Origin: Escherichia phage Utah
Strand: one strand, 5' to 3'
Length of the DNA stretch: 59,024 bases
Sequence record: KY014601.1
Shown here: in pieces, positions 614 through 58,783 of the stretch
Position numbering within the stretch: the first letter of the stretch is position 1
Layout: every line of letters begins with the position of its first letter
Made by a program: the position numbers and the translations under genes
Notes under the pieces: model-generated
What the model saw: the letters and a program-made list of their open reading frames with translations, nothing else
What the model was told of the DNA's origin: nothing
The model's database searches: none

Positions 614-901
614 ATGCAGCACGATGAATGCCGTGAAACGTTGATGGATTTCAAACGACAATTACAGACACATTTGAAGGCGATTTTACGTCGTCAGGGG
701 GTCACACAGAGCGCGCTTGCGACGATGATCGGCGTACACCAGTCAAGATTAAGTTTCATGCTTAACAGTGACGCAGACAGAGTTTCGATCGATAAACTCA
801 TTGAAGCGATAGTGAAACTGGATGGCGTGTTTATGGTGAAAATCGGAGATCAAACAGACATAAATCGAGTGCGGTACAAGGAGTGCGAAGACAACGTTTG
901 A
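614..901 (+). CDS. XRE-family helix-turn-helix transcriptional regulator (Cro/CI-like)
   Basis: 95 aa; HTH segment QSALATMIGVHQSRLSFMLN typical of XRE/HTH_3 regulators; own promoter and terminator. Confidence 0.6.
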   Translation: MQHDECRETLMDFKRQLQTHLKAILRRQGVTQSALATMIGVHQSRLSFMLNSDADRVSIDKLIEAIVKLDGVFMVKIGDQTDINRVRYKECEDNV

Positions 902-941: not shown

Positions 942-3527
942 CTAAACTTCGTCTTCATCGTCAAACGGGTCTGGCTTTTTGCCGACCAGTTTTTCGACTT
1001 CTGCGTCATGCCGTTTTAACGTAGTCTGCACCCATGACGAGTTAAGTTTCCCCGCGTCATCGAATGCCCCTTTGACCCGCTTACGGACATAAACGCGGCC
1101 AGATTCGCCGCCAAATTTGACCACGCCGCCCGGCTTGAAGCCCAATTCCATAAGCATGTTTTTCAGGCGGTTCGTCTTCGGCATTTCCACGTCTGTCATT
1201 TCGAGGAATGCGTTTTTCAGGGACGGCACGAAGATGACGTCGCGGTGTACGCCCGGCGTCGTTCCGTCACGAAGCATTTGTGCGATTGCGCCTTCCACGC
1301 CATCGTCAGACGCGTCGGCCATGACCGCGAATGCTTCGGTGTCCTGCGGTGCGTGTCCTTTGGCATCGAAATCCTTTCCGATCTCCCAATCGAGGAACCA
1401 CTTTTTGATAGCAGGTGCGTGGTTTTCGATTGCCCGGTACACGTTTTTGAAGAAGCGCGCGCGTTCAGTCTTCGACCCGTAAACCCGCTCCATGTCCAGA
1501 TGATTTTCTGCCTGCGTTGACACCACCAGATAACGACGCTGGTTTTCATCGAGTGGCAATGCGTTGAAGTGGTTGGTGAACATCATTTTGCTGCTGGTGT
1601 TCACTACTTCCTTCGGCTTGCGGCCCTTTGGCTCAATCTGGAAGCGGTCGTTTGTGATGAATTCCTTCTGGCGTTCCACCGCGCTGTACCTATCGCCTTT
1701 GTCGTAGATCTCTTCCACGATTTTCAGGATGTGGCCCTCGGCCCAATCGCTGAAACGGCCATTCATCACGGTGTTTGACACATAGCCCACGTTCGACGCG
1801 CCGAGCATCCGCGACATGATGATGCCGAGCGTCGTTTTACCAGAACCATGCGCACCACGGATCAGAAGCGAGTAGTTGATGCGTTTCGTTGGGTGCTGAA
1901 TAACCCACGCCATCCAGTCCAGAACATAGCGGCGTTCCTTCTCGTTCGGGAAAAGCACGATGAAGAAGTCTTTGATGATCTCCAGCGCCTTTTTGTCGTA
2001 CGGAGAAAGGTCAGTCGCGGCCTCCGGAATGGATTCAGGGTCAAAAGAGTTCAGCCACGTACGCCCACGGTCGTCAATAAAGAATTCCGGCCCGATCACC
2101 CCCTCTTTCGGCTTCCACACAGATTCCGGCATGTCACCGTGCATCGCCGGGTAGTACATCGCGTCCCAAACGATAGGAACCGGGCGGACTACCGACGCAT
2201 AGTGGACAGGCTTGAAGGCTTCTTCCTCAAACACGCATTTTTTCGCAAAAGCGACGTCGAAAGCGCCTTTTGTGATGTAATCGCCCGTGGTTTTTTCGAT
2301 AAAACTGTCATTTGCCTTCGAGAAAACGAAGTTTTTCAGCCACTGCGGAGTCTCTTTTGACCCGTAATCGAAGCCCAAAAGCTCCCTTTTGTCACCAGCA
2401 GTGAGGCGGAAGTTGTTGATCCTGCGGTATGCTTCGGCCGCAATCTGGACGATGGCCTTGCGGGTAAGCCCGAAAATCTGCGCTTTTTTGAATGATTCGG
2501 CCCACGCATTCCAGTCATTCGCCTCGGTACACTCGGCGAAAGCCTCGCGGTACTCGATGGCGCGTTCTTCCTGCTCGGCTTTCTCGATGTCCTGCACTTC
2601 TTTGATGATGGTGCCGAGCGTGATCAGTCGAGTCGAGTTGTGCGCGAAGCCCTTATCCCACTTGTATTCGAAATCACCTTCGTCGAAGTTGTGTGCCTGC
2701 ATGGCCCATTCGCGGGCAATGGCCTTCGCCTCGTCCTGATCGCGGCAGGAAATTTGCAGCGCGGCCAGTACGGTGATGTAGTTCTCGTAATCTTCCGGGT
2801 TCGGGTATTTCAGGACGATGTCGCGCAGTTCATCGTACGTGCCGTCCCACTTTTTGACGTCAGACAGCGCGGCCCAATCGTCATCGTCTGCCGAACCGAT
2901 AGACTCATAACCGTTCATTGGCCGTTTGACCATTGTCCAGCCCAAGTCCTTCGCGTATCGGTCGAATTCGGCGGCGATCTCGCGAGCGGTATCGAGGCTG
3001 ATCTCTTCGAGGTCAAGGTCGGCGGCGTTGTTCAGCGGATTCTCGCCATCAATCCAGTAATAGTCGCGCTTGGTGTCCGGGTGGATACCGTACGCAACGA
3101 ACTGCTGGCCGTCGGCGAGGATTTCAACTGCATGGCGCTGGCCGAAGTCGTCTTCCCACACGCCGGATTTCACTTTGGCGAACGGGTTTTCGGTTCGGTA
3201 CAGGTAGAGTTTCTTCGGCTCCCGGCCGATACGACATGGCGCTGCACCGACGTTCTCGGCGATCCAGTCTGCCATGTGCGCCACGGCGTCTTCATCGTAA
3301 ACGTCGATGTCAACCGCCGGGGTGTATTTGGTCAGAATCCCGATGCCGTTATTCGTATAGCGTTTCGCCCAACGCTGGATCTGCTCCTTATCATTGATTG
3401 TTCGTTCCCAATCTTCACCGATAGGGCGTTTGCCCGCACCCTTCTTATCGGCGTCCGGGGCGTAGATAGGTACGATGGTGTACCCATTCCCCCAAAGCGT
3501 TTCGCCGTACTCTTGCCAGTAGTTCAT
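942..3527 (-). CDS. Bifunctional primase-polymerase (PrimPol N-terminus) fused to D5/SF3-type helicase
   Basis: 861 aa; N-terminal PrimPol-like region (TIVPIYAPDADKKGAGKRPIG..., VDIDVYDED acidic motif); C-terminal Walker A GAHGSGKTT; acidic tail ...DDEDEV. Confidence 0.8.
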   Translation of the reverse strand: MNYWQEYGETLWGNGYTIVPIYAPDADKKGAGKRPIGEDWERTINDKEQIQRWAKRYTNNGIGILTKYTPAVDIDVYDEDAVAHMADWIAENVGAAPCRIGREPKKLYLYRTENPFAKVKSGVWEDDFGQRHAVEILADGQQFVAYGIHPDTKRDYYWIDGENPLNNAADLDLEEISLDTAREIAAEFDRYAKDLGWTMVKRPMNGYESIGSADDDDWAALSDVKKWDGTYDELRDIVLKYPNPEDYENYITVLAALQISCRDQDEAKAIAREWAMQAHNFDEGDFEYKWDKGFAHNSTRLITLGTIIKEVQDIEKAEQEERAIEYREAFAECTEANDWNAWAESFKKAQIFGLTRKAIVQIAAEAYRRINNFRLTAGDKRELLGFDYGSKETPQWLKNFVFSKANDSFIEKTTGDYITKGAFDVAFAKKCVFEEEAFKPVHYASVVRPVPIVWDAMYYPAMHGDMPESVWKPKEGVIGPEFFIDDRGRTWLNSFDPESIPEAATDLSPYDKKALEIIKDFFIVLFPNEKERRYVLDWMAWVIQHPTKRINYSLLIRGAHGSGKTTLGIIMSRMLGASNVGYVSNTVMNGRFSDWAEGHILKIVEEIYDKGDRYSAVERQKEFITNDRFQIEPKGRKPKEVVNTSSKMMFTNHFNALPLDENQRRYLVVSTQAENHLDMERVYGSKTERARFFKNVYRAIENHAPAIKKWFLDWEIGKDFDAKGHAPQDTEAFAVMADASDDGVEGAIAQMLRDGTTPGVHRDVIFVPSLKNAFLEMTDVEMPKTNRLKNMLMELGFKPGGVVKFGGESGRVYVRKRVKGAFDDAGKLNSSWVQTTLKRHDAEVEKLVGKKPDPFDDEDEV

Positions 3528-4047: not shown

Positions 4048-4464
4048 ATGTCTGGTATCTTCGAACAACTGCTGGCTGAACAACAAAAAACCAACACCCT
4101 GCTGGAAGGCGTTCTGGCAGCACTGAAAGGCGGCGCGGTGAACACTTCCGCTGACGCTGGTAGCGAAACTACTGAAAAAACCACCACCACCAAAGGCGGT
4201 GCTAAGGGCGGCGCGAAAGGCGGTGCAGGTAAAACCGAAACTAAAGCGGTCAAGCCTAAACACACCAAAGACGAAGTAGTCGCGGCTGTCGTTGCGGTTA
4301 AAGACGCGTTCGGCGCGCCGGAAGCCAAGAAAATCACCGCACACTTCGGCCTCGCCAAAGTCGCGGAAGCGAAGGAAGAACACTTCGACGAAATCGTCGA
4401 AATGTGTGAAGCCAAACTGGCTGAAAAAGATGAAGGCGGTAACGGCGAAGAAGACGACGTTTAA
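4048..4464 (+). CDS. Hypothetical Ala/Lys/Gly-rich protein with acidic C-terminal tail
   Basis: 138 aa; KGGAKGGAKGGAGK low-complexity segment; ends ...GNGEEDDV; good RBS. Confidence 0.5.
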   Translation: MSGIFEQLLAEQQKTNTLLEGVLAALKGGAVNTSADAGSETTEKTTTTKGGAKGGAKGGAGKTETKAVKPKHTKDEVVAAVVAVKDAFGAPEAKKITAHFGLAKVAEAKEEHFDEIVEMCEAKLAEKDEGGNGEEDDV

Positions 4465-4525: not shown

Positions 4526-4855
4526 GTGACCAGCATTACTTTCACCAACGTAGCAACATCCGGCGGCGCAGTTCTCGCGCGCACTTGGGCGGAGTTTCGT
4601 TTTCAAATCGGTGATCGCGATGTGCTGTTCAGAGTTACTTCACCTGTTTCGAAACACGAAGCGCCGCTGCTCGTAACCCATGCTGCATCGGGCTATCGAG
4701 TGTGCGACGTCTGGTGGGACGACGTGGCGAAGACTCGCTTTAACGCAGGCCGCAATAATTACAGCGGGGCAGGCGCTAGGGCATTGGTAGCGACGATTGA
4801 GCGAGTCGGCGAACACCGATTCCTCAATGCGATAAAGGCGTATCCGAATGAGTAG
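4526..4855 (+). CDS. Hypothetical protein (GTG start)
   Basis: GTG at 4526 preceded by GGAGAGG RBS; longer ATG-initiated ORF (4292) would overlap previous gene by 170 nt and span a terminator-like hairpin. Confidence 0.4.
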   Translation: MTSITFTNVATSGGAVLARTWAEFRFQIGDRDVLFRVTSPVSKHEAPLLVTHAASGYRVCDVWWDDVAKTRFNAGRNNYSGAGARALVATIERVGEHRFLNAIKAYPNE

Positions 4856-6185
4856 TAAGTCACTGTTAGTCCGCATCATGCGGGAATTCGGCGGTGGCGG
4901 CCACTCAATCTTCGCGCCTTCTGCGTCAGCGCGTTGGATCGCATGTTCTGGAAGCCTGATAGCCGGGCTTTTCGAGCATGACGAAACCATCTACGAGGCG
5001 GCGGAAGGCACGGTGGCCCACGGAATCGCCGAACAATGGCTGCGAACGGATGTCCGGCCAACCCATTTAATCGGTACGGTCGAGACGATCACGGAAGGCG
5101 GTGTCAGCCATGACATCCCCATTACTCGGTCAATGCTCGACTCGGTTCAGGAGTACGTTGACTGGTGCCGATTTGAAGAGGGTGAAATGTTCACGGAAAT
5201 CCGGGTCTGGTTTACCGACCTGATGCCGCGAGCGAACCCGGATGAACCTGACGAAGACCCGATCGAGTTTGTCGCTCAGGGCGGAACGGCGGATAATATC
5301 ATCATCCGCGACCGAACCTTGATCGTGACCGACCTGAAATACGGGACTGGCGTTCAGGTTTTCGCGGAAGGGAACCCGCAGGCGCTACTTTACGCGTACG
5401 GTGCGTACCGCGCTTTCTCGGATGAATACGAGTTTGACCGTATTGTCATCCGGATCGCGCAGCCGAGGCTCGACCATTTCGATACGTGGGAAATCACGAT
5501 TGACGAATTGTTAGAGTTCGCGGAGTATGCCCGGGAGCGAATTGCAGCGGCATGGAGCCTTACCGCGCCGCGCCGCGCATCCCTGAAAGGGTGTCGTTTT
5601 TGCCGGGCAGCACATAACTGCGCAGCGATAGCGTACATGATGGAATGCGCAGTGGGCGGGGATGTGGAATTCCTTGAAGCTGAATTCGGGGAGGAAGAAA
5701 TGTCAGTATTGCGTGATGCGCTGGCGCAGGAGTATAAATTCCGGCGTGCGCAGTTCGGGAACCTGACAACCGAGCAGATGGCGAAGATCCTGCCATACCG
5801 CAAGGTGGTCGAAAACTGGTTCTCGCGCCTTGACTTCGAACTGGAACGCCGCGCAATGAACGGCGAGAAGGTACCGGGTCAAAAGCTGGTGGAGTCGCGG
5901 ACAAACCGCAAATTCGCCAACGAGAAAGATGCGATCGCGCTGTTCAAGTTCCTCGATATCGAAGAGGACAAGTACATCGAGCGCAAACTGCGTACCCCGG
6001 CGCAGATGGAAGAAGTGCTCAGGGATGAATTGGGCGTGTCCCGGGCTGGCGCGCCGAACATCATCGCGGGGATCGTCTACAAGCCGGAAGGCAAGCCTAC
6101 ACTGGCACCGCTTACCGATAAGCGGCCACCACTGGACGGCAAGTATTCCGGGGCGTGGGACGACGAAGATGATGACGAAGTGTAA
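4848..6185 (+). CDS. PD-(D/E)XK nuclease with Cas4/RecB-like Fe-S cysteine cluster (DUF2800-like)
   Basis: 445 aa; N-terminal Cys in WIACSGS plus C-terminal CRFCRAAHNC; DxK-type motif IVTDLKYG; acidic tail ...WDDEDDDEV; position next to SSB and PolA. Confidence 0.65.
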   Translation: MSSKSLLVRIMREFGGGGHSIFAPSASARWIACSGSLIAGLFEHDETIYEAAEGTVAHGIAEQWLRTDVRPTHLIGTVETITEGGVSHDIPITRSMLDSVQEYVDWCRFEEGEMFTEIRVWFTDLMPRANPDEPDEDPIEFVAQGGTADNIIIRDRTLIVTDLKYGTGVQVFAEGNPQALLYAYGAYRAFSDEYEFDRIVIRIAQPRLDHFDTWEITIDELLEFAEYARERIAAAWSLTAPRRASLKGCRFCRAAHNCAAIAYMMECAVGGDVEFLEAEFGEEEMSVLRDALAQEYKFRRAQFGNLTTEQMAKILPYRKVVENWFSRLDFELERRAMNGEKVPGQKLVESRTNRKFANEKDAIALFKFLDIEEDKYIERKLRTPAQMEEVLRDELGVSRAGAPNIIAGIVYKPEGKPTLAPLTDKRPPLDGKYSGAWDDEDDDEV

Positions 6186-6239: not shown

Positions 6240-6836
6240 ATGGCCGAGAAATTAGTCCCTGCGAAAAAAGTCAAGAATGGCGTGCTGTACAAATCTGGTC
6301 ACATCAAGATTTCTAACGTACGTGCTTCTTACCCGCACCTCGATAAGCCGTACGGCGGTGAAGACGGCGGCGAGCCGAAATACTCGCTGACGCTTTTGAT
6401 GCCGAAAGACAGCCACGGCGAGATCGAGAAAATCATCCGTGAGCAGATCGAAGTCACCAAGAAGAACCACAAGACAGGCGCGCTGAAAGTCGCCCCGTCC
6501 ATGTTGTTCATCAAAGACGGTGATACCGATTTTCCGGATAAGCCGGAATGCGAAGGGATGTGGGTTATCTCCGCACGCGAAAGCAAACGCCCGGATGTGT
6601 ATAACATCGAGCGCGAAGAGTTGACTACCTCTTCCGAAATTCTGGAAGAGATCTACGGTGGTTGTTGGGTGTCGGTTGTCATCCGTCCGTGGTCGCAGGA
6701 AAACAAATTCGGCAAACGCGTTAACGCCAACCTGATTTCCGTTCTGAAACGCAAAGACGACGAGCCGTTCGGTGAAGGTCGTGTGGACACGTCCGACGCG
6801 TGGGATGAAGACGAAGATTGGGAAGACGAAGTGTAA
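6240..6836 (+). CDS. Single-stranded DNA-binding protein-like (phage SSB, DUF2815-like)
   Basis: 198 aa; position between nuclease and DNA polymerase; long acidic C-terminal tail ...DTSDAWDEDEDWEDEV as in SSBs. Confidence 0.5.
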   Translation: MAEKLVPAKKVKNGVLYKSGHIKISNVRASYPHLDKPYGGEDGGEPKYSLTLLMPKDSHGEIEKIIREQIEVTKKNHKTGALKVAPSMLFIKDGDTDFPDKPECEGMWVISARESKRPDVYNIEREELTTSSEILEEIYGGCWVSVVIRPWSQENKFGKRVNANLISVLKRKDDEPFGEGRVDTSDAWDEDEDWEDEV

Positions 6837-9231: not shown

Positions 9232-10753
9232 AGCGCTCGCGTACTGCCTGCGGACGGTTAAACTGAACCGCAGCGACATGCACGACTATCAGGACGAAGG
9301 CGTCCAGTTCATCAAAGACCATCCGTACTGCGGCATGTTCGTAGACCTCGGCTTGGGTAAGACTGTCATGACCGGGACGGCCATGCTCGACCTGATCGCG
9401 GACGGCGAAATCAACAAAGTCCTCGTCGTCGCGCCGAAGCGCGTGGCCCGTACCGGGTGGCCGACGGAATTCGACGAGTGGGGCCACCTGTGTTTCTACA
9501 AGATGTCGGTCATCGCCGGGAACGCCAAAGAGCGCGCAGCGGCCGCGAGTAAGGACTGCCATTTTTACACGATCAGCGTGGATAACATTGCGTGGCTGTG
9601 TGAGCACTTCAAGACGAAATGGCCGTTCGACGCCGTGGTGCTGGACGAGTCGAGCATGTTCAAATCCCACACCTCGCAGCGCTTCAAACTGCTGCGCCGG
9701 GTGCGGAAGTACATCAAACGGATCGTCGAGTTGACGGCCACGCCTGCGGCCGAAGGGTACATGGGTATCTTCTCGCAAATTTACCTGCTGGACGAAGGCG
9801 AGCGCTTTGGCTCCACCATCGGCGGTTATCAGGAAAACTACTTCACGCAGAACCGCTACAACTTCAAATGGAAACTTCGCCCCGGTGCGGAAGACGAGAT
9901 TATTCGGAAGATTTCTGATATATGTTTAGTCATGAAAGCGGAAGACTACCTTGACATGCACGAACCGAATTTCGTTCCTGTCCCGGTCGAGTTAGACGGG
10001 GAGACGGCGGAGCGGTACCGCATGATGGAGGAAGAGAGCCTCGTCGAGATTATGCCGGACGATTTCGATGAACATCTGGATGACCCAATCGTGATCGAAG
10101 CGGAGCAGGCCGCGTCTTTGCAGTCGAAGTTATTGCAGATGTGCTCAGGCTTCATCTACGACACGAAAATCGTTGGCATAACGCAAGACGACAAGGTCAT
10201 TAAGCAGAAGGACACGTACAGGCTGCACGACCTGAAATTCGATGCACTGGAAGAACTGCTGGAAACCACGCTGGCCGATAAAAACGTGCTGATCGCCTAT
10301 CACTTCAAGCCGACCCTCGAACGACTGAAAGAGCGGTTTAAAGATCTGGTGGTCATGGATGATGACGGTAAGTGCATCAAGAAGTGGAACGCCGGAAAGA
10401 TTCGACTGCTGGCCGCGCACCCTCAGTCAGCGGGACACGGTTTAAACCTCCAGCATGGGGGCCACGTCATCGTCTACATCGACAATCCGTGGTCGCTCGA
10501 ACGCTTCCTGCAATTCAACGGCAGACTTCACCGTCAGGGCCAGAAGTACCCGGTTACTATCTACCAGTTCAAAGCCATGCTGCGAACACCGAACGGGCTT
10601 CTGGCCGAGACAGCGGACGACGTCGTGATTCAGGCGCTGAACGACAAAGAGGACGTGCAGGACGCGTTCTTCGAACTGCTCGAACGCATCAAAGGGCGCA
10701 TCAAACGCCGCAAGAAATCGAAAAATAAAGGGGTATGGGATGACGAAGAGTAA
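9194..10753 (+). CDS. SNF2-family (SF2) ATP-dependent helicase
   Basis: Motif I DLGLGKT, motif II VVLDESSMFK, C-terminal helicase motifs HPQSAGHGLNLQ and NGRLHRQGQ; start ambiguous (ATG 9194 overlaps VRR-NUC; alternative ATG 9278). Confidence 0.8.
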   Translation: MQTLKTTLSPLSRALAYCLRTVKLNRSDMHDYQDEGVQFIKDHPYCGMFVDLGLGKTVMTGTAMLDLIADGEINKVLVVAPKRVARTGWPTEFDEWGHLCFYKMSVIAGNAKERAAAASKDCHFYTISVDNIAWLCEHFKTKWPFDAVVLDESSMFKSHTSQRFKLLRRVRKYIKRIVELTATPAAEGYMGIFSQIYLLDEGERFGSTIGGYQENYFTQNRYNFKWKLRPGAEDEIIRKISDICLVMKAEDYLDMHEPNFVPVPVELDGETAERYRMMEEESLVEIMPDDFDEHLDDPIVIEAEQAASLQSKLLQMCSGFIYDTKIVGITQDDKVIKQKDTYRLHDLKFDALEELLETTLADKNVLIAYHFKPTLERLKERFKDLVVMDDDGKCIKKWNAGKIRLLAAHPQSAGHGLNLQHGGHVIVYIDNPWSLERFLQFNGRLHRQGQKYPVTIYQFKAMLRTPNGLLAETADDVVIQALNDKEDVQDAFFELLERIKGRIKRRKKSKNKGVWDDEE

Positions 10754-11309
10754 TGCGCCACTGGCAACCCGGAATCGCCGCTCTAATGCGCCGGACGCCG
10801 ATACCGAAGCGATGATCTTTCAGGGCTGCAACATCACGCAACTGGCGAAGCTGTTTCGCATGGAGCGCCGGGACATCACGCCGAAAATCATGGATGTCCC
10901 GCCTGTCGGCGAGCGTGGCGGGTACCCGATCTACGCGGTTCACGAAGTGGCCCCGTACCTCGTTAAGCCGCTGTACGATGTCGAGACGTACCTGCGCCGC
11001 ATGAATTTCAAGGATCTGCCGAAGGAGTTGTCGAAAGAGTTTTGGGCCGGGCAGCGTGCAAAGCAGGACTTCGACATCAAAGCGGGAAACCTGTGGGAAA
11101 CCGAGAAGGTGATCGAGCACTTCGGCGAGGCGGTGAAGGTGCTGCGCATGTCGATGTTGCTCATTCCCGACACGCTGGCGCGTCAGGCCGGACTCAGCGA
11201 GCCGCAACGTCAGGTCATCACGTCATCCATTGACGCCATGCTGAACGACCTGTCGAGCGCGCTGATCGATAAGTTCAACGGCGACGAGGTGGATGACGAT
11301 GAAGTTTAA
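10740..11309 (+). CDS. Terminase small subunit (Nu1-like) with acidic C-terminus
   Basis: Immediately upstream of and overlapping TerL; HTH-like N-region ITQLAKLFRMERRDITPKI resembling lambda Nu1 N-terminus; ends ...DEVDDDEV; possible alternative start at 10812. Confidence 0.55.
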   Translation: MTKSNAPLATRNRRSNAPDADTEAMIFQGCNITQLAKLFRMERRDITPKIMDVPPVGERGGYPIYAVHEVAPYLVKPLYDVETYLRRMNFKDLPKELSKEFWAGQRAKQDFDIKAGNLWETEKVIEHFGEAVKVLRMSMLLIPDTLARQAGLSEPQRQVITSSIDAMLNDLSSALIDKFNGDEVDDDEV

Positions 11310-50437: not shown

Positions 50438-51526
50438 TTAAACCTCGTCGTCGTCTTCTTCGTCGTCTTCTTCGTCGTTCAGCGTTCCGGTGTACTCGAC
50501 TACCTGCCCGGCCTCGTCCAGCACGCTGATCACCGCACGCAGGGACTTATCGAGTTGGAACAGGTTAGCCATCATGGTCAGGAACTGGCCGCCGTCGGTG
50601 CCGTAGCGTTCGAGCGTGGCGTCGTAGTTCGCATCAACGTCGGCCTCGCCGATGTGGATACCGGACAGGATGGCTTTGTCGGACAGGCGGAAGTACACGG
50701 TGTCGATGCCCGGGCATTGCGTATCGACTTCGAGATCCAGCGCGCGGACAGTCCAGTGACGTGACAGCAGGTCAACCACCGACTCGTCTTTGAAGATGTC
50801 CGTGTCCTTCATCTTGACGTCGTCGCCATCGTCGTGTTTCAGGTGGATAAACGCATCGCCCTTGATGCCGTCCTGCTGGCCGAGAACCGCGCGCTGCATT
50901 AACTGGCGCAGCTCATACTCGCTCGGCAGGAGGTGTTCGACGGGCCATGTGCCGAGCGCGGTACGGATCAGCGCGCTGCACTCTTCTGCCGTCTTCGCGC
51001 TCGACGTGAACACGTACACGAACGGGGCGGACAGGATGACGTTGACGCGGGAAGGGCGGATAGGCGCGTGTTTCAGCATTTCCGCTTCCACGTCGTCCTT
51101 CATCTGCGCCCAATCCTTGCGGTTCGGCTCCCAACCCTCGATCTCTTTCTCCCGCAACGCGGCCATGCGCTTCACGACTTCATTTCGTACGCTGACGCCG
51201 GGCAACACACGTTCGCGTTTCTCGATCTGGAAGACGATGGCGTTTGTCCCGGGGATGGCGAGGGCGAATTTGCTGTCAACCTCTTCGCCGTACGCTGCAA
51301 AGCCCATTGTCTTGTAAGACGCCTCCGGCGGATCTGACACTTCATGCTTTTCGAGTGCATCGCTTAACGCTCCTTTAGCGAAAGACGTCACCGCCTCTTC
51401 GTCAACGTTCGGCAGATTCAGGATCAGGCGGTGCAGCGGCTTGACCTTCTCGTTACCGTCGTTGGCCGCGTCATACAGCGCGCCGAGGTGCAGGATAATG
51501 GCTTTCTCATAACCCTTGATTTTCAT
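50438..51526 (-). CDS. RdgC-like recombination-associated protein with long acidic C-terminal tail
   Basis: 362 aa; region SALIRTALGTWPVEHLLPSE resembles E. coli RdgC (LALLRKSLGSLPVVPLS); ends ...NDEEDDEEDDDEV. Confidence 0.55.
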   Translation of the reverse strand: MKIKGYEKAIILHLGALYDAANDGNEKVKPLHRLILNLPNVDEEAVTSFAKGALSDALEKHEVSDPPEASYKTMGFAAYGEEVDSKFALAIPGTNAIVFQIEKRERVLPGVSVRNEVVKRMAALREKEIEGWEPNRKDWAQMKDDVEAEMLKHAPIRPSRVNVILSAPFVYVFTSSAKTAEECSALIRTALGTWPVEHLLPSEYELRQLMQRAVLGQQDGIKGDAFIHLKHDDGDDVKMKDTDIFKDESVVDLLSRHWTVRALDLEVDTQCPGIDTVYFRLSDKAILSGIHIGEADVDANYDATLERYGTDGGQFLTMMANLFQLDKSLRAVISVLDEAGQVVEYTGTLNDEEDDEEDDDEV

Positions 51527-52668: not shown

Positions 52669-53040
52669 TTAAACTTCGTCGTCGTCCGCGACGTCGGTGG
52701 CCGTACAGGTTACGACGGCCTGAATGAACATGCGGCCAGACGGGTAAGTCACCAGTGCGGATTCCATACTGAACCGTTGGCCGTGGTGTTTCATGGCGTT
52801 CCGGATGGAAGAATTAAGGCTGGCCCGCATCTTCGCTTTGAGGGCATTGGCCTCGTCCTGTACCTGCGAAAGCGTACGGTCAAGCGGGAGTTCTTGGGAC
52901 AGGGTGTACACGCCACCGACTTCCAGCGCAATGAGGTTCCCCACGACGCTGTACACGCGCACGCGTGACGGCAGTTCAACATCCGGCTCGGTCGTCATCA
53001 TTGCGCCAGTCAGTTCGGCCGGGCTTAGTTCTTTGCTCAT
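52669..53040 (-). CDS. Hypothetical early protein with acidic C-terminus, first gene of leftward unit 1
   Basis: 123 aa; ends ...TDVADDDEV; promoter 53083-53111 upstream. Confidence 0.5.
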   Translation of the reverse strand: MSKELSPAELTGAMMTTEPDVELPSRVRVYSVVGNLIALEVGGVYTLSQELPLDRTLSQVQDEANALKAKMRASLNSSIRNAMKHHGQRFSMESALVTYPSGRMFIQAVVTCTATDVADDDEV

Positions 53041-53111: not shown

Positions 53112-53164
53112 TTCATTTCATCCAGTAATTATGATGACCGGGTGACGCTCCAGTTTAGTTTCAG

Positions 53165-53409
53165 CCGGATGACGTTTTGAAGTAAGGCGGGTGGCCGGGC
53201 CGCCGGGCTTCAACCGGGTAACTTTTTCAAGTAAGCGCGGAACGTCGCAACGACAACCGGACAGGTTTTTCAAGTAAGCCCGTCGGCCGGGTGAAATTGC
53301 CCCGACGCTGGTGGACAAAACCGTCAGCCGGGTAGGTTTTTGAAGTAAGGACTGGCCGCGTTGTTCAAAATTTTTCAACCGGGTAACTTTTTCAAGTAAG
53401 CCCGTCGGG
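53165..53409. repeat. Five direct iteron-like repeats, consensus CCGG(G/A)NA(A/G)NNTTTT(C/G)AAGTAAG
   Basis: Copies start at 53165, 53214, 53257, 53328, 53379 (spacing 43-71 bp); followed by AT-rich patch and a GC-rich block 53440-53700; no ORF. Confidence 0.6.
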
Positions 53410-53706
53410 AATTTTTATAGAGAAAGTCAGGCCCGGCGCGGTCTGCCGTTGTGGGCGGTTGTCGTTTTTGGCGGAATTTCGTACAAATCGTTATAAATCA
53501 ATGGTTTAACCTATGCGCCGATCGGCCTGTTTTGGCCCGGTTGGCGTCGGTTTTTCATATAGAATTCAAGGGTTTAGGACGTGGCGCCGCGTGCCGTTTG
53601 GCGGTGTGCCGGGGCGGGGGCCGTGGGGCGCGGCGGTGCAATGCGGCCCGGCGTGGCGATCGGTGGCGCTTTTATGTGCGGTTACTCAAATAATATGAAA
53701 AAAGAT

Positions 53707-53753
53707 TTGACGCACGCCGCGTATATCATCTACATTTGAATTCCCTTCGGGGG
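53707..53753 (+). promoter_or_regulatory. Rightward promoter unit with conserved core and 5' UUCG stem-loop
   Basis: TTGACGCACGCCGCGTATATCAT-CTACAT then CCCTTCGGGGG; about 47-nt unit nearly identical to 56484-56530. Confidence 0.55.
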
Positions 53754-53800
53754 ACGGGGCAAAAAGTCCAGGCGATAAACTAACTTTATGAGGTATCACG

Positions 53801-56449: not shown

Positions 56450-56483
56450 AGGTGACGCGGCCGACGATTAAAGAGAAAAGTTA

Positions 56484-56530
56484 TTGACGCACGCCGCGTA
56501 TATCATTTATATTTAAATTCCCTTCGGGGG
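56484..56530 (+). promoter_or_regulatory. Second rightward promoter unit (TTGACG-17-TTATAT) with conserved core and UUCG stem-loop
   Basis: TTGACGCACGCCGCGTATATCAT-TTATAT then CCCTTCGGGGG; gene ATG 56575. Confidence 0.6.
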
Positions 56531-56574
56531 CCGGGGGCAATGGGGCCGACGGTTAGCAAAACAGGTGCTACAAA

Positions 56575-58585: not shown

Positions 58586-58783
58586 TGATATACGCGGCGT
58601 GCGTTGCGGTGCCGTGTAGCGGGCCTATGGTGTGCCGTGTGCGATGATATACGCGGCGTGCGCATGGCGGCCCGTCCTGATTTCTTCCTTCCTGATATAC
58701 ACGACGTGCATCAAAGCGGCCTTATGTGCGCGCTATGCCGTATGGCGGCCCGCTATGGTGCTGCATGATATACGCGGCGTGCG
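58586..58783. repeat. Four direct repeats of TGATATACGCGGCGTGCG (reverse complement of the rightward promoter core), lacking a good -35
   Basis: Copies at 58586, 58645, 58693 (variant TGATATACACGACGTGCA), 58766; spacing 48-73 bp; copy 4 reverse complement matches 53710-53729 over 20 nt. Confidence 0.75.

Follow-up and report, generated by a model that had tools for sequence, protein, structure and literature searches.

A conserved array of direct repeats between predicted divergent early promoters of Escherichia phage Utah and other Chi-like phages, a possible replication origin

Iteron origins such as R6K gamma ori and pSC101 are built to a common order, in which a repeat array is followed by a promoter and a first gene that is transcribed outward, while an IHF site lies on the far side of the array. 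Classical iterons are contiguous units of about 22 bp, presented on the same face of the DNA helix. Repeats are also used by satellite phage P4, whose alpha primase-helicase recognises short, repeated and irregularly spaced sites; these are octamers, oriented either way and grouped at two separate loci (ori and crr). Multiple protein-binding sites need not serve replication, and the p4/p6 region of phi29 and the operator of Mu with IHF are nucleoprotein switches that act between divergent phage promoters. The origin of lactococcal phage c2 is non-coding and AT-rich, depends on a transcript, and is located between divergent early and late promoters. Here, we describe an array of direct repeats in the largest non-coding gap of Escherichia phage Utah, and compare it with these systems and with the corresponding region of other Chi-like phages.

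The window is the complete 59,024-bp Utah genome (KY014601.1), the first 12 bases of which, GGTGCGCAGAGC, agree with the genome paper (PMC5374247). The array lies in a gap, about 760 bp long in annotated relatives, between a leftward and a rightward operon. Its core, TTTTSAAGTAAG, occurs five times and on the plus strand only (at 53175, 53224, 53267, 53338 and 53389). For the core pattern TTTT[CG]AAGTAAG, 0.22 occurrences would be expected by chance against the five observed, none of 100 shuffled sequences reaches five, and no other copy exists in the window even when one mismatch is allowed. A longer repeat pattern recovers the identical five sites and nothing more, and the only xAAGTAAG octamer outside the array is a single intragenic GAAGTAAG.

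A preliminary description of this DNA had reported five direct repeats of about 23 bp. The copy number and the core are confirmed, but the unit is longer, at about 27–31 nt. Repeat finding on the Utah sequence yields a 31-nt family, and alignment of 57 units from 12 lineages gives the consensus AAAcktCAACCkGCtAGGTTTTTCAAGTAAG, which carries about 36 bits; the unit can be represented by the 31-mer AATTTTTCAACCGGGTAACTTTTTCAAGTAAG. Information per position is near 2 bits throughout AAGTAAG and strong in the T tract, and is weaker but real in the left half (C..CC.G..AG). The spacings of units 1–5 are 49, 43, 71 and 51 bp, and unit 5 has an A/T-rich left extension inside the conserved sequence GTTCAAAATTTTTCAACC (53363–53380). 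The units and their companion elements are listed in table 1.

Table 1. Features of the gap between the leftward and rightward operons of phage Utah, with positions in the 59,024-bp window.
Feature	Position	Strand	Description
DUF7609 protein gene (Chi gp62 homologue)	52669–53040	−	123 aa, acidic ...DDDEV tail; Pfam PF24582, E 3e-35
Predicted leftward promoter, PL	53111–53083	−	TTGACA-17-TATTGT, sigma-70-type; consensus scan, 10/12 matches
Repeat unit 1	53156–53186	+	core GTTTTGAAGTAAG, most degenerate copy
Repeat unit 2	53205–53235	+	CAACCGGGTAAC-TTTTTC-AAGTAAG
Repeat unit 3	53248–53278	+	kept in FSL SP-030
Repeat unit 4	53319–53349	+	71 bp after unit 3
Repeat unit 5	53370–53400	+	51 bp after unit 4
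TATAGAG motif, AATTTTTATAGAGAAAG	53410–53426	+	begins 19 nt past TTCAAG of last repeat
IHF consensus site, AATCAATGGTTTA (WATCAANNNNTTR)	53496–53508	+	perfect match, preceded by A/T tract; about 100 bp right of array
Second IHF-like site, ATTCAAGGGTTTA	53564–53576	+	1 mismatch; equivalents in Enc34, L144 (perfect there)
G-rich block	53581–53680	+	77% GC, GC skew +0.32; upstream of PR
Predicted rightward promoter, PR	53707–53736	+	TTGACG-18-TACATT; consensus scan

The repeats had been placed between the leftward and rightward early promoters, and the predicted promoters PL and PR do flank the array. PL is found upstream of the DUF7609 gene and is the predicted driver of the leftward operon. In annotated relatives, the homologue of Chi gp62 comes first in this operon and is followed by genes for an RdgC-like protein and a Dam methylase, and the rightward operon consists of small genes without known function. 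PL is conserved in all genera compared, and only 1 of its 29 columns varies within Chivirus. The spacer of PR contains the 18-mer CGCACGCCGCGTATATCA (53711–53728), which recurs at 56488 on the plus strand and in four minus-strand copies at 58586–58783. PL and PR share a conserved spacer element (CGCACGCCGCGTATATCA and a variant of it) that is separate from the array and looks like a true operator.

On the right-hand side, the array is accompanied by two further types of element, the order of which is likewise conserved. The TATAGAG motif AATTTTTATAGAGAAAG follows the last repeat in Utah, PIN2, XAP3, PatoteraRojo, Redjac and Kokobel1, its 19-nt offset from TTCAAG is kept in five genera, and 4 of the 30 columns of this region are variable within Chivirus; Utah has a second copy, TTTTTCATATAGAATTC, at 53551–53567, and array-less Proteus phage Saba still has TTTATAGAGGA. 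The IHF site is one of only four perfect matches in the Utah genome, and two of the remaining three lie at the left cos end. An IHF site, either perfect or with one mismatch, is located 74–126 bp past the last repeat in Smarc5, XAP3, Enc34, Kokobel1, PIN2, L144 and L150. Depending on the genus, PL lies about 5 to 75 bp from the first unit, and it is the distances to the TATAGAG motif and the IHF site that are conserved; the array therefore seems to be coupled to these right-hand elements rather than to PL.

The base composition of the gap is less marked than had been suggested. An AT-rich patch at 53405–53430 exists, but it is only 26 bp long, has an A+T content of 65% and does not rank with the least stable duplexes of the genome. 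A GC-rich block had been drawn at 53440–53700; overall this interval has 57% GC, equal to the genome mean, and only the shorter G-rich block of table 1 is GC-rich. This block includes three G runs of 4–5 and no canonical G-quadruplex motif, and it is well conserved in Chivirus (20% variable columns). Analogous G-rich stretches are present in the gaps of Klebsiella phages and of SS2019XI, and are absent from AT-richer genera.

Conservation of the repeats among relatives had been proposed as a check on their importance, and the array is indeed retained. The 751 bases around it are 99.9% identical to Salmonella phage iEPS5 and 86–98% identical to about 90 other Chi-like phages. More distant relatives were found via a protein search with gp62, and their gaps were then compared. 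The motif recurs, with orientation and location unchanged and in 3–6 copies, in at least 10 further lineages besides Utah: there are five copies in Hafnia phage Enc34, Providencia phages Redjac and PatoteraRojo and Serratia phage Smarc5, four in XAP3 and the Klebsiella phages, three in Kokobel1 and, by collection scans, four or five in the GC-rich, temperate Pseudomonas phage SS2019XI. The array-bearing gap is the largest non-coding gap, and measures 460–760 bp in most genera. The DUF7609 gene adjoins the array in every array lineage compared, SS2019XI included, the orientation of the motif relative to this gp62-type gene is constant, and equivalent promoters flank the array in relatives. Several uncultured contigs of 57–62 kb and one 58.9-kb contig binned into a MAG also carry it. 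Bacterial genomes yielded one phage-sized contig with the array, the remaining matches being unrelated tandem repeats, and the array is absent from the plasmid database; we therefore regard the array as characteristic of Casjensviridae and, as far as the collections searched extend, exclusive to them.

Within Chivirus, variability is distributed unevenly over the array. Variable columns number 1 of 35 in AAGTAAG and 9 of 65 in the 13-mer core, compared with 33 of 60 in the left half of the unit, and they make up 34–64% of the spacers; purifying selection thus acts on the repeat sites rather than on the intervening spacers. The segment 53163–53395 is heavily substituted in SEP13 and ECO111 5-P between nearly identical flanks, and despite the substitutions all cores and spacings are kept, with zero indels; unit 2 is degenerate in ECO111 5-P. 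The spacing is partly retained over longer distances. The full series 49/43/71/51 is common to Chivirus and Smarc5, the gap of which can be aligned to that of Utah over about half its length at 69.5% identity, while 71/51 is found in Redjac, PatoteraRojo and FSL SP-030, 73/51 in XAP3 and a final 51 in Enc34; the 71 + 51 bp spacing is held across five genera. Over all lineages, spacings range from 31 to 168 bp, the minimum being equal to the length of the unit. Some copies in SEP13, FSL SP-030, Redjac, XAP3 and a Klebsiella-type contig belong to a variant class that has ...TAGATCnnCCAAGTAAG in place of the T tract.

Two relatives show natural losses. In FSL SP-030, a gene for an HNH endonuclease stands in place of units 1 and 2 and leaves three units spaced by 71 + 51 bp, so the first two copies are dispensable. 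In Saba, the gap measures only 246 bp and not one CAAGTAAG occurs within 60 kb, while homologues of the PrimPol-helicase (gp2), gp3, gp4, gp62 and the whole replication module are kept. Two AGTTTTTA sequences located 50 bp apart in the Saba gap were considered as vestigial sites, and are too degenerate to call.

Since the motif recurs across the whole Chi-like family, the repeats are functional DNA sites rather than chance or coding sequence, and very probably docking sites for a protein, and the array is very likely the assembly site of a sequence-specific nucleoprotein. As to the role of that complex, the layout of the region makes initiation of replication at an iteron-type origin the most likely function, ranking above control of early transcription, and we put it forward tentatively. 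Under this model, the five repeats would be bound by one sequence-specific protein at asymmetric sites of about 31 bp, the essential part of which would be T5-(C/G)-AAGTAAG, all facing away from the DUF7609 gene. The bound repeats, together with IHF some 100 bp to the right, would form a large nucleoprotein complex within the 760-bp gap between PL and PR. The bound protein would mark the site and recruit the PrimPol-SF3 helicase (gp2) and other replication proteins, and the negative supercoiling that opens the DNA would come from transcription in the two directions at PL and PR.

Several features favour such an origin. The asymmetric direct repeats, five in number against a minimum of three, are confined to one non-coding locus; the order runs from the array to a promoter and a first gene that is read outward, IHF being located on the far side; and a conserved IHF site, a location between divergent promoters and the replication context of the neighbouring genes complete the picture. 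The theta origins R6K gamma ori, pSC101 ori, RK2 oriV, P1 oriR and lambda ori likewise have asymmetric direct repeats in one non-coding region, an adjacent IHF site, a gene transcribed outward from its promoter and a copy number that varies among relatives, and RK2 oriV also has a GC-rich segment on the far side. The lytic siphophage c2, which has cos ends, resembles Utah in that its origin occupies a non-coding region between divergent transcription units, but in Utah no promoter was found for a transcript across the array.

The region had been likened to the classic layout of a replication origin, but that layout is incomplete here. The units of Utah, at about 31 bp, are longer than iterons, and they are 31–168 bp apart and unphased: tests for 10–11 bp periodicity of the spacings gave no significant helical phasing (Rayleigh, p 0.12–0.92). 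Comparison of duplex stability over the whole genome revealed no substantial AT-rich unwinding element beside the array, and nothing like the AT-rich 13-mer region of iteron origins; within the gap, the least stable duplex is the UP-like region of PR. No DnaA box (TTWTNCACA) is present in the gap. Searches of the flanking genes with Pfam, PHROGs and NCBIfam found no initiator of the Rep_3, RepA, TrfA or lambda-O type, and returned only DUF7609, DUF7300 and unknown families; in the place of a Rep gene, the neighbour of the array encodes a 123-aa DUF7609 protein that has no recognisable DNA-binding fold. Because it fails the phasing, unwinding-element and Rep-gene tests, the array is not filed as a member of the iteron-origin family. 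Saba, which has the same replication genes and no array, also argues against an origin at this site.

GC skew was considered as an origin locator and rejected. The detrended cumulative skew reaches its minimum 0.4–1.2 kb from the gap in each of Utah, SS2019XI and Saba; in the raw cumulative skew, the minimum near the gap is confounded with the reversal of transcription. When skew was regressed on gene orientation and a bidirectional-origin term in these three genomes, the best bidirectional origin fell at 41–43 kb in Utah, 43–44.5 kb in SS2019XI and about 20–25 kb in Saba, and the array was not selected. Skew is not used as evidence here because the minimum is also near the gap in array-less Saba and the best fit of the regression lies elsewhere.

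The least stable duplex of the whole genome is at 285–400. Around this interval, the left end of the genome contains a second origin-like region, with five perfect and three near copies of GGTTACAA in both orientations and two IHF sites nearby. This region could just as well be cosB, or serve as operator for the HTH gene beside it.

Among the Utah proteins examined as candidates, no reader of the motif was identified. A parallel is offered by P4 alpha, which has the same domain order as gp2 (primase/PrimPol, SF3 helicase and C-terminal winged helix). The domains of gp2 are PrimPol, PriCT_2, a D5/SF3-type helicase and the winged helix; its last 180 or so residues are modelled with a pLDDT of 89.5, and the top structural matches of this part are all winged-helix domains. 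The Utah array differs from the P4 sites in occupying one locus in one orientation, about 6–9 kb from the gp2 gene. Moreover, the putative recognition helix of gp2 is not conserved between lineages with an identical motif (2 of 10 residues are identical between Utah and SS2019XI, though the DNA core is the same), and the Saba homologue retains the winged-helix domain, yet its genome lacks the motif. The lack of conservation of this helix weakens the case for binding of the array by gp2, whose winged-helix tail appears to be a poor candidate.

Other candidates fared no better. The gp62/DUF7609 protein, the constant neighbour of the array, was considered as the binder, but it is also present in array-less Saba and its model has no match to a DNA-binding fold; the AF2 model (pLDDT 75) gave no informative fold match and no winged-helix pair. 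A BLAST search for Utah proteins that are shared with SS2019XI and missing from Saba yielded no candidate and two weak partial matches only. Homologues of gp3, a small HTH protein encoded upstream of the primase, occur in Utah, SS2019XI and Saba alike. A link to ParB was dropped, as gp51 of SS2019XI, a ParB-HTH protein, has no counterpart in Utah. To our knowledge, and judged by eye, the motif does not fit the consensus of sigma-32, sigma-E, sigma-28, sigma-54, Fis, boxA or various Escherichia coli regulators. Acidic C-terminal tails of the form D(D/E)EV are found in gp62, the PrimPol-helicase, gp4, the DUF2800 exonuclease, the gp2.5-like SSB, the RdgC-like protein and TerS; this shared tail is a clue that may tie gp62, the neighbour of the array, to the replication and packaging machinery.

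The strongest rival to an origin is a complex that controls early transcription and has no role in replication, in which sites for a phage or host regulator and bending by IHF would form a looped structure that times or balances PL and PR. We consider this possible but doubtful. The array sits exactly between the two promoters, with the IHF site between it and PR, as in the phi29 p4/p6 region and the Mu operator, where multiple sites for one protein are combined with a DNA-bending protein between divergent early promoters (in Utah, a predicted arrangement). The first unit directly adjoins the −35 element of PL in Redjac, PatoteraRojo and PIN2, the hallmarks of an origin beyond repeats and IHF are missing, and a copy number that ranges from three to six, with two copies that can be lost, suits this explanation. 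It is also favoured by Saba, since loss of the array while PL, PR and the replication genes are kept is expected of an accessory regulatory layer. However, the Utah sites overlap neither promoter, the first unit being about 45 bp beyond the −35 element of PL and the last ending about 300 bp from PR, and the distance to PL is not fixed between genera. The promoter spacers already share a separate element that resembles a real operator, which is a further difference from the phi29 and Mu switches; no regulator gene co-occurs with the array; and asymmetric sites in direct orientation are atypical of phage operators.

Next, the repeats might not be iterons in the classical sense but a family-wide signal that a conserved machine reads. 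They could form a row of sites at which the PrimPol-helicase is loaded or primes one-directional, Rep-free synthesis, or a site that arrests or anchors the incoming genome after the first 5.8 kb or so, as in first-step transfer of T5. This proposal, which we hold improbable, would explain why 13 nt are identical across Salmonella, Klebsiella, Providencia and Pseudomonas phages when the small DNA-binding proteins have all diverged, why the units share a single orientation and why there is no initiator gene.

A narrower form, in which a conserved machine reads the motif directly, as a template or loading signal for the PrimPol-helicase or as an element for the host RNA polymerase, is slightly less probable again. 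It would account for 13 nt being identical in phages of Enterobacterales and Pseudomonas, as well as fitting a core that is invariant across hosts when small DNA-binding candidates are undetectable or highly diverged between lineages, and copies that all point one way. Against direct reading, Saba keeps the PrimPol-helicase without the motif, no promoter was found that would transcribe across the array, and the idea has no verifiable precedent.

We give a similarly low rank to a centromere-like or anchoring role, in which the array and IHF would form a parS-type site inherited from temperate ancestors or, more speculatively, halt and anchor the entering genome in a T5-type first-step transfer. 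Arrays of direct repeats in variable copy number with an IHF site recall P1 parS and F sopC, temperate SS2019XI encodes an integrase and has its ParB-HTH protein three genes from the array, and the array is 5.6–5.9 kb from the right cos end. In Utah and Chi, however, no ParA or ParB was detectable among 20 proteins searched by Pfam (from the replication module at the left end, the leftward operon and the first part of the rightward one) and 20 searched by PHROGs, and the IHF site lies outside the repeats rather than between them. These phages are, moreover, described as lytic (PMC4342425, PMC5374247).

The gap had been described as lacking a convincing open reading frame, which is borne out: in ten Chivirus genomes, variable sites are not enriched at third codon positions in any of the candidate frames, and the stop-free stretches change from genus to genus. 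The proposed check of the GC-rich block for structured RNA was negative. Folding of the G-rich half, calculated for each strand, and of the array gave z-scores of −0.61, +0.83 and −1.67, within the range of shuffled controls, and an Rfam scan of the gap found no match at E ≤ 0.1, the best match of a scan at E ≤ 1 being a spurious IRES (E 0.12; 17 bits, where the threshold is 100). It is therefore very improbable that the region gives rise to a structured RNA, or a sponge RNA with repeated motifs, or that the hypothetical proteins annotated in the gap by some GenBank records (86 aa, minus strand, 53118–53378; 80 aa, plus strand, 53451–53693) are products of real genes, given also that the distances between repeats are not divisible by 3, that the reading frames differ between genera and that a consensus scan finds no promoter preceding the array.

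The array appears to be previously undescribed. The repeats are not mentioned in the Utah genome paper (PMC5374247), the Chi genome paper (PMC4342425) or the other papers on the family that were searched, a full-text literature search for the motif itself returned nothing relevant, and no description of a replication origin or of early-gene control in Chi-like phages was found in the literature searched. Members of the Chi-like group (Casjensviridae) have been isolated widely and are candidate agents for phage therapy, and the array, their most conserved non-coding element, provides a 31-base handle on the family. Natural variants are at hand for comparison, in the three copies of FSL SP-030, the swapped array of SEP13 and the complete absence of the array from Saba. 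The identity of the protein that reads the array would reveal either the missing initiator of a widespread PrimPol-helicase/PolA replication module or a master switch of early transcription.

Several records carry natural variants of the array, the five direct repeat units of about 31 nt between the leftward (PL) and rightward (PR) early promoters. At 382–906 of FSL SP-030, the gap carries an inserted HNH endonuclease gene that takes the place of units 1 and 2 and of the sequence between them and PL; Ariobarzanes and the Staphylococcus phage SA1 record show the same replacement. When the array segment of SEP13 and ECO111 5-P is aligned to window positions 53163–53395, strong divergence from other Chivirus genomes is confined to this segment and the flanks on either side are near-identical to theirs, a pattern that looks like the swapping of the array as a module by mosaic exchange. 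The same comparison places a GATC-containing variant, TAGATCTCCCAAGTAAG, in one repeat unit.

The spacer of PR is filled by an 18-mer, CGCACGCCGCGTATATCA, for which the chance expectation is 0.1, and the spacer of a second PR-like promoter is filled likewise (positions of this and other features are listed in the table); the surrounding DNA at 53697–53759 is 89% identical to a 64-bp segment at 56473–56536. The four minus-strand copies lie beyond a terminator-like hairpin and are associated with no promoter. A variant of the 18-mer occupies the PL spacer, and equivalent promoter spacers are conserved in other genera. An early regulator probably uses the 18-mer as its operator.

Features of the window outside the repeat units
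Feature	Position	Strand	Remark
CGCACGCCGCGTATATCA	53711–53728	+	PR spacer
CGCACGCCGCGTATATCA	56488–56505	+	spacer of second PR-like promoter
CGCACGCCGCGTATATCA	58586–58603, 58645–58662, 58693–58710, 58766–58783	-	non-coding right end
GGTTACAA cluster	225–504	both	5 perfect, 3 near copies
Least stable duplex of genome	285–400		surrounded by GGTTACAA copies
IHF consensus sites	60, 168		both perfect
HTH gene	614–901		adjacent to GGTTACAA cluster
PrimPol-helicase	942–3527	-	D(D/E)EV tail
gp4	4048–4464	+	D(D/E)EV tail
DUF2800 exonuclease	4848–6185	+	D(D/E)EV tail
gp2.5-like SSB	6240–6836	+	D(D/E)EV tail
TerS	10740–11309	+	D(D/E)EV tail
RdgC-like protein	50438–51526	-	D(D/E)EV tail
gp62 (DUF7609)	52669–53040	-	D(D/E)EV tail

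A separate repeat cluster, built of GGTTACAA, lies near the left cohesive end, which adjoins it together with the two IHF sites. This cluster could be a set of cosB/terminase sites, could act as operators of the HTH gene beside it, or could compete with the array as a candidate origin. In the window, the octamer GCTGGTGG, the Chi site of RecBCD, is found at 23 sites, against 1.5 expected from dinucleotide shuffles that were not codon-matched, a genome-wide density of about one per 2.6 kb (for example at 5885, 8030 and 53307). Fourteen copies are on the plus strand and nine on the minus strand, mostly matching gene orientation, and one is inside the array, in the spacer separating repeats 3 and 4.

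Seven window proteins end in a near-alike acidic C-terminal tail, D(D/E)EV, which looks like a common docking peptide for one hub protein. Among the gp62 homologues compared, the tail is retained in Enc34, Redjac, XAP3 and PIN2; those of Saba, Kokobel1 and SS2019XI are without it. Acidic C-termini also occur in several distant PrimPol-helicase homologues.

Chi-like sequence with 86–100% identity to the array region is also present in GenBank records filed under Staphylococcus phage SA1 (147 kb), Listeria phage LM 4-14-1, Enterococcus phage Efm 3-10 and Staphylococcus phage SA 1298 Kay (search matches H70–H72, H78–H81 and H121–H122). Contamination or wrong assignment of these records is the probable cause. 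The Pseudomonas phage SS2019XI, a member of the Casjensviridae that has the array, carries genes for an integrase, an excisionase, a CI-like HTH regulator and a ParB-HTH protein. Temperate phages thus also belong to this family, and they have their early-region architecture in common with the lytic Chi-like phages.
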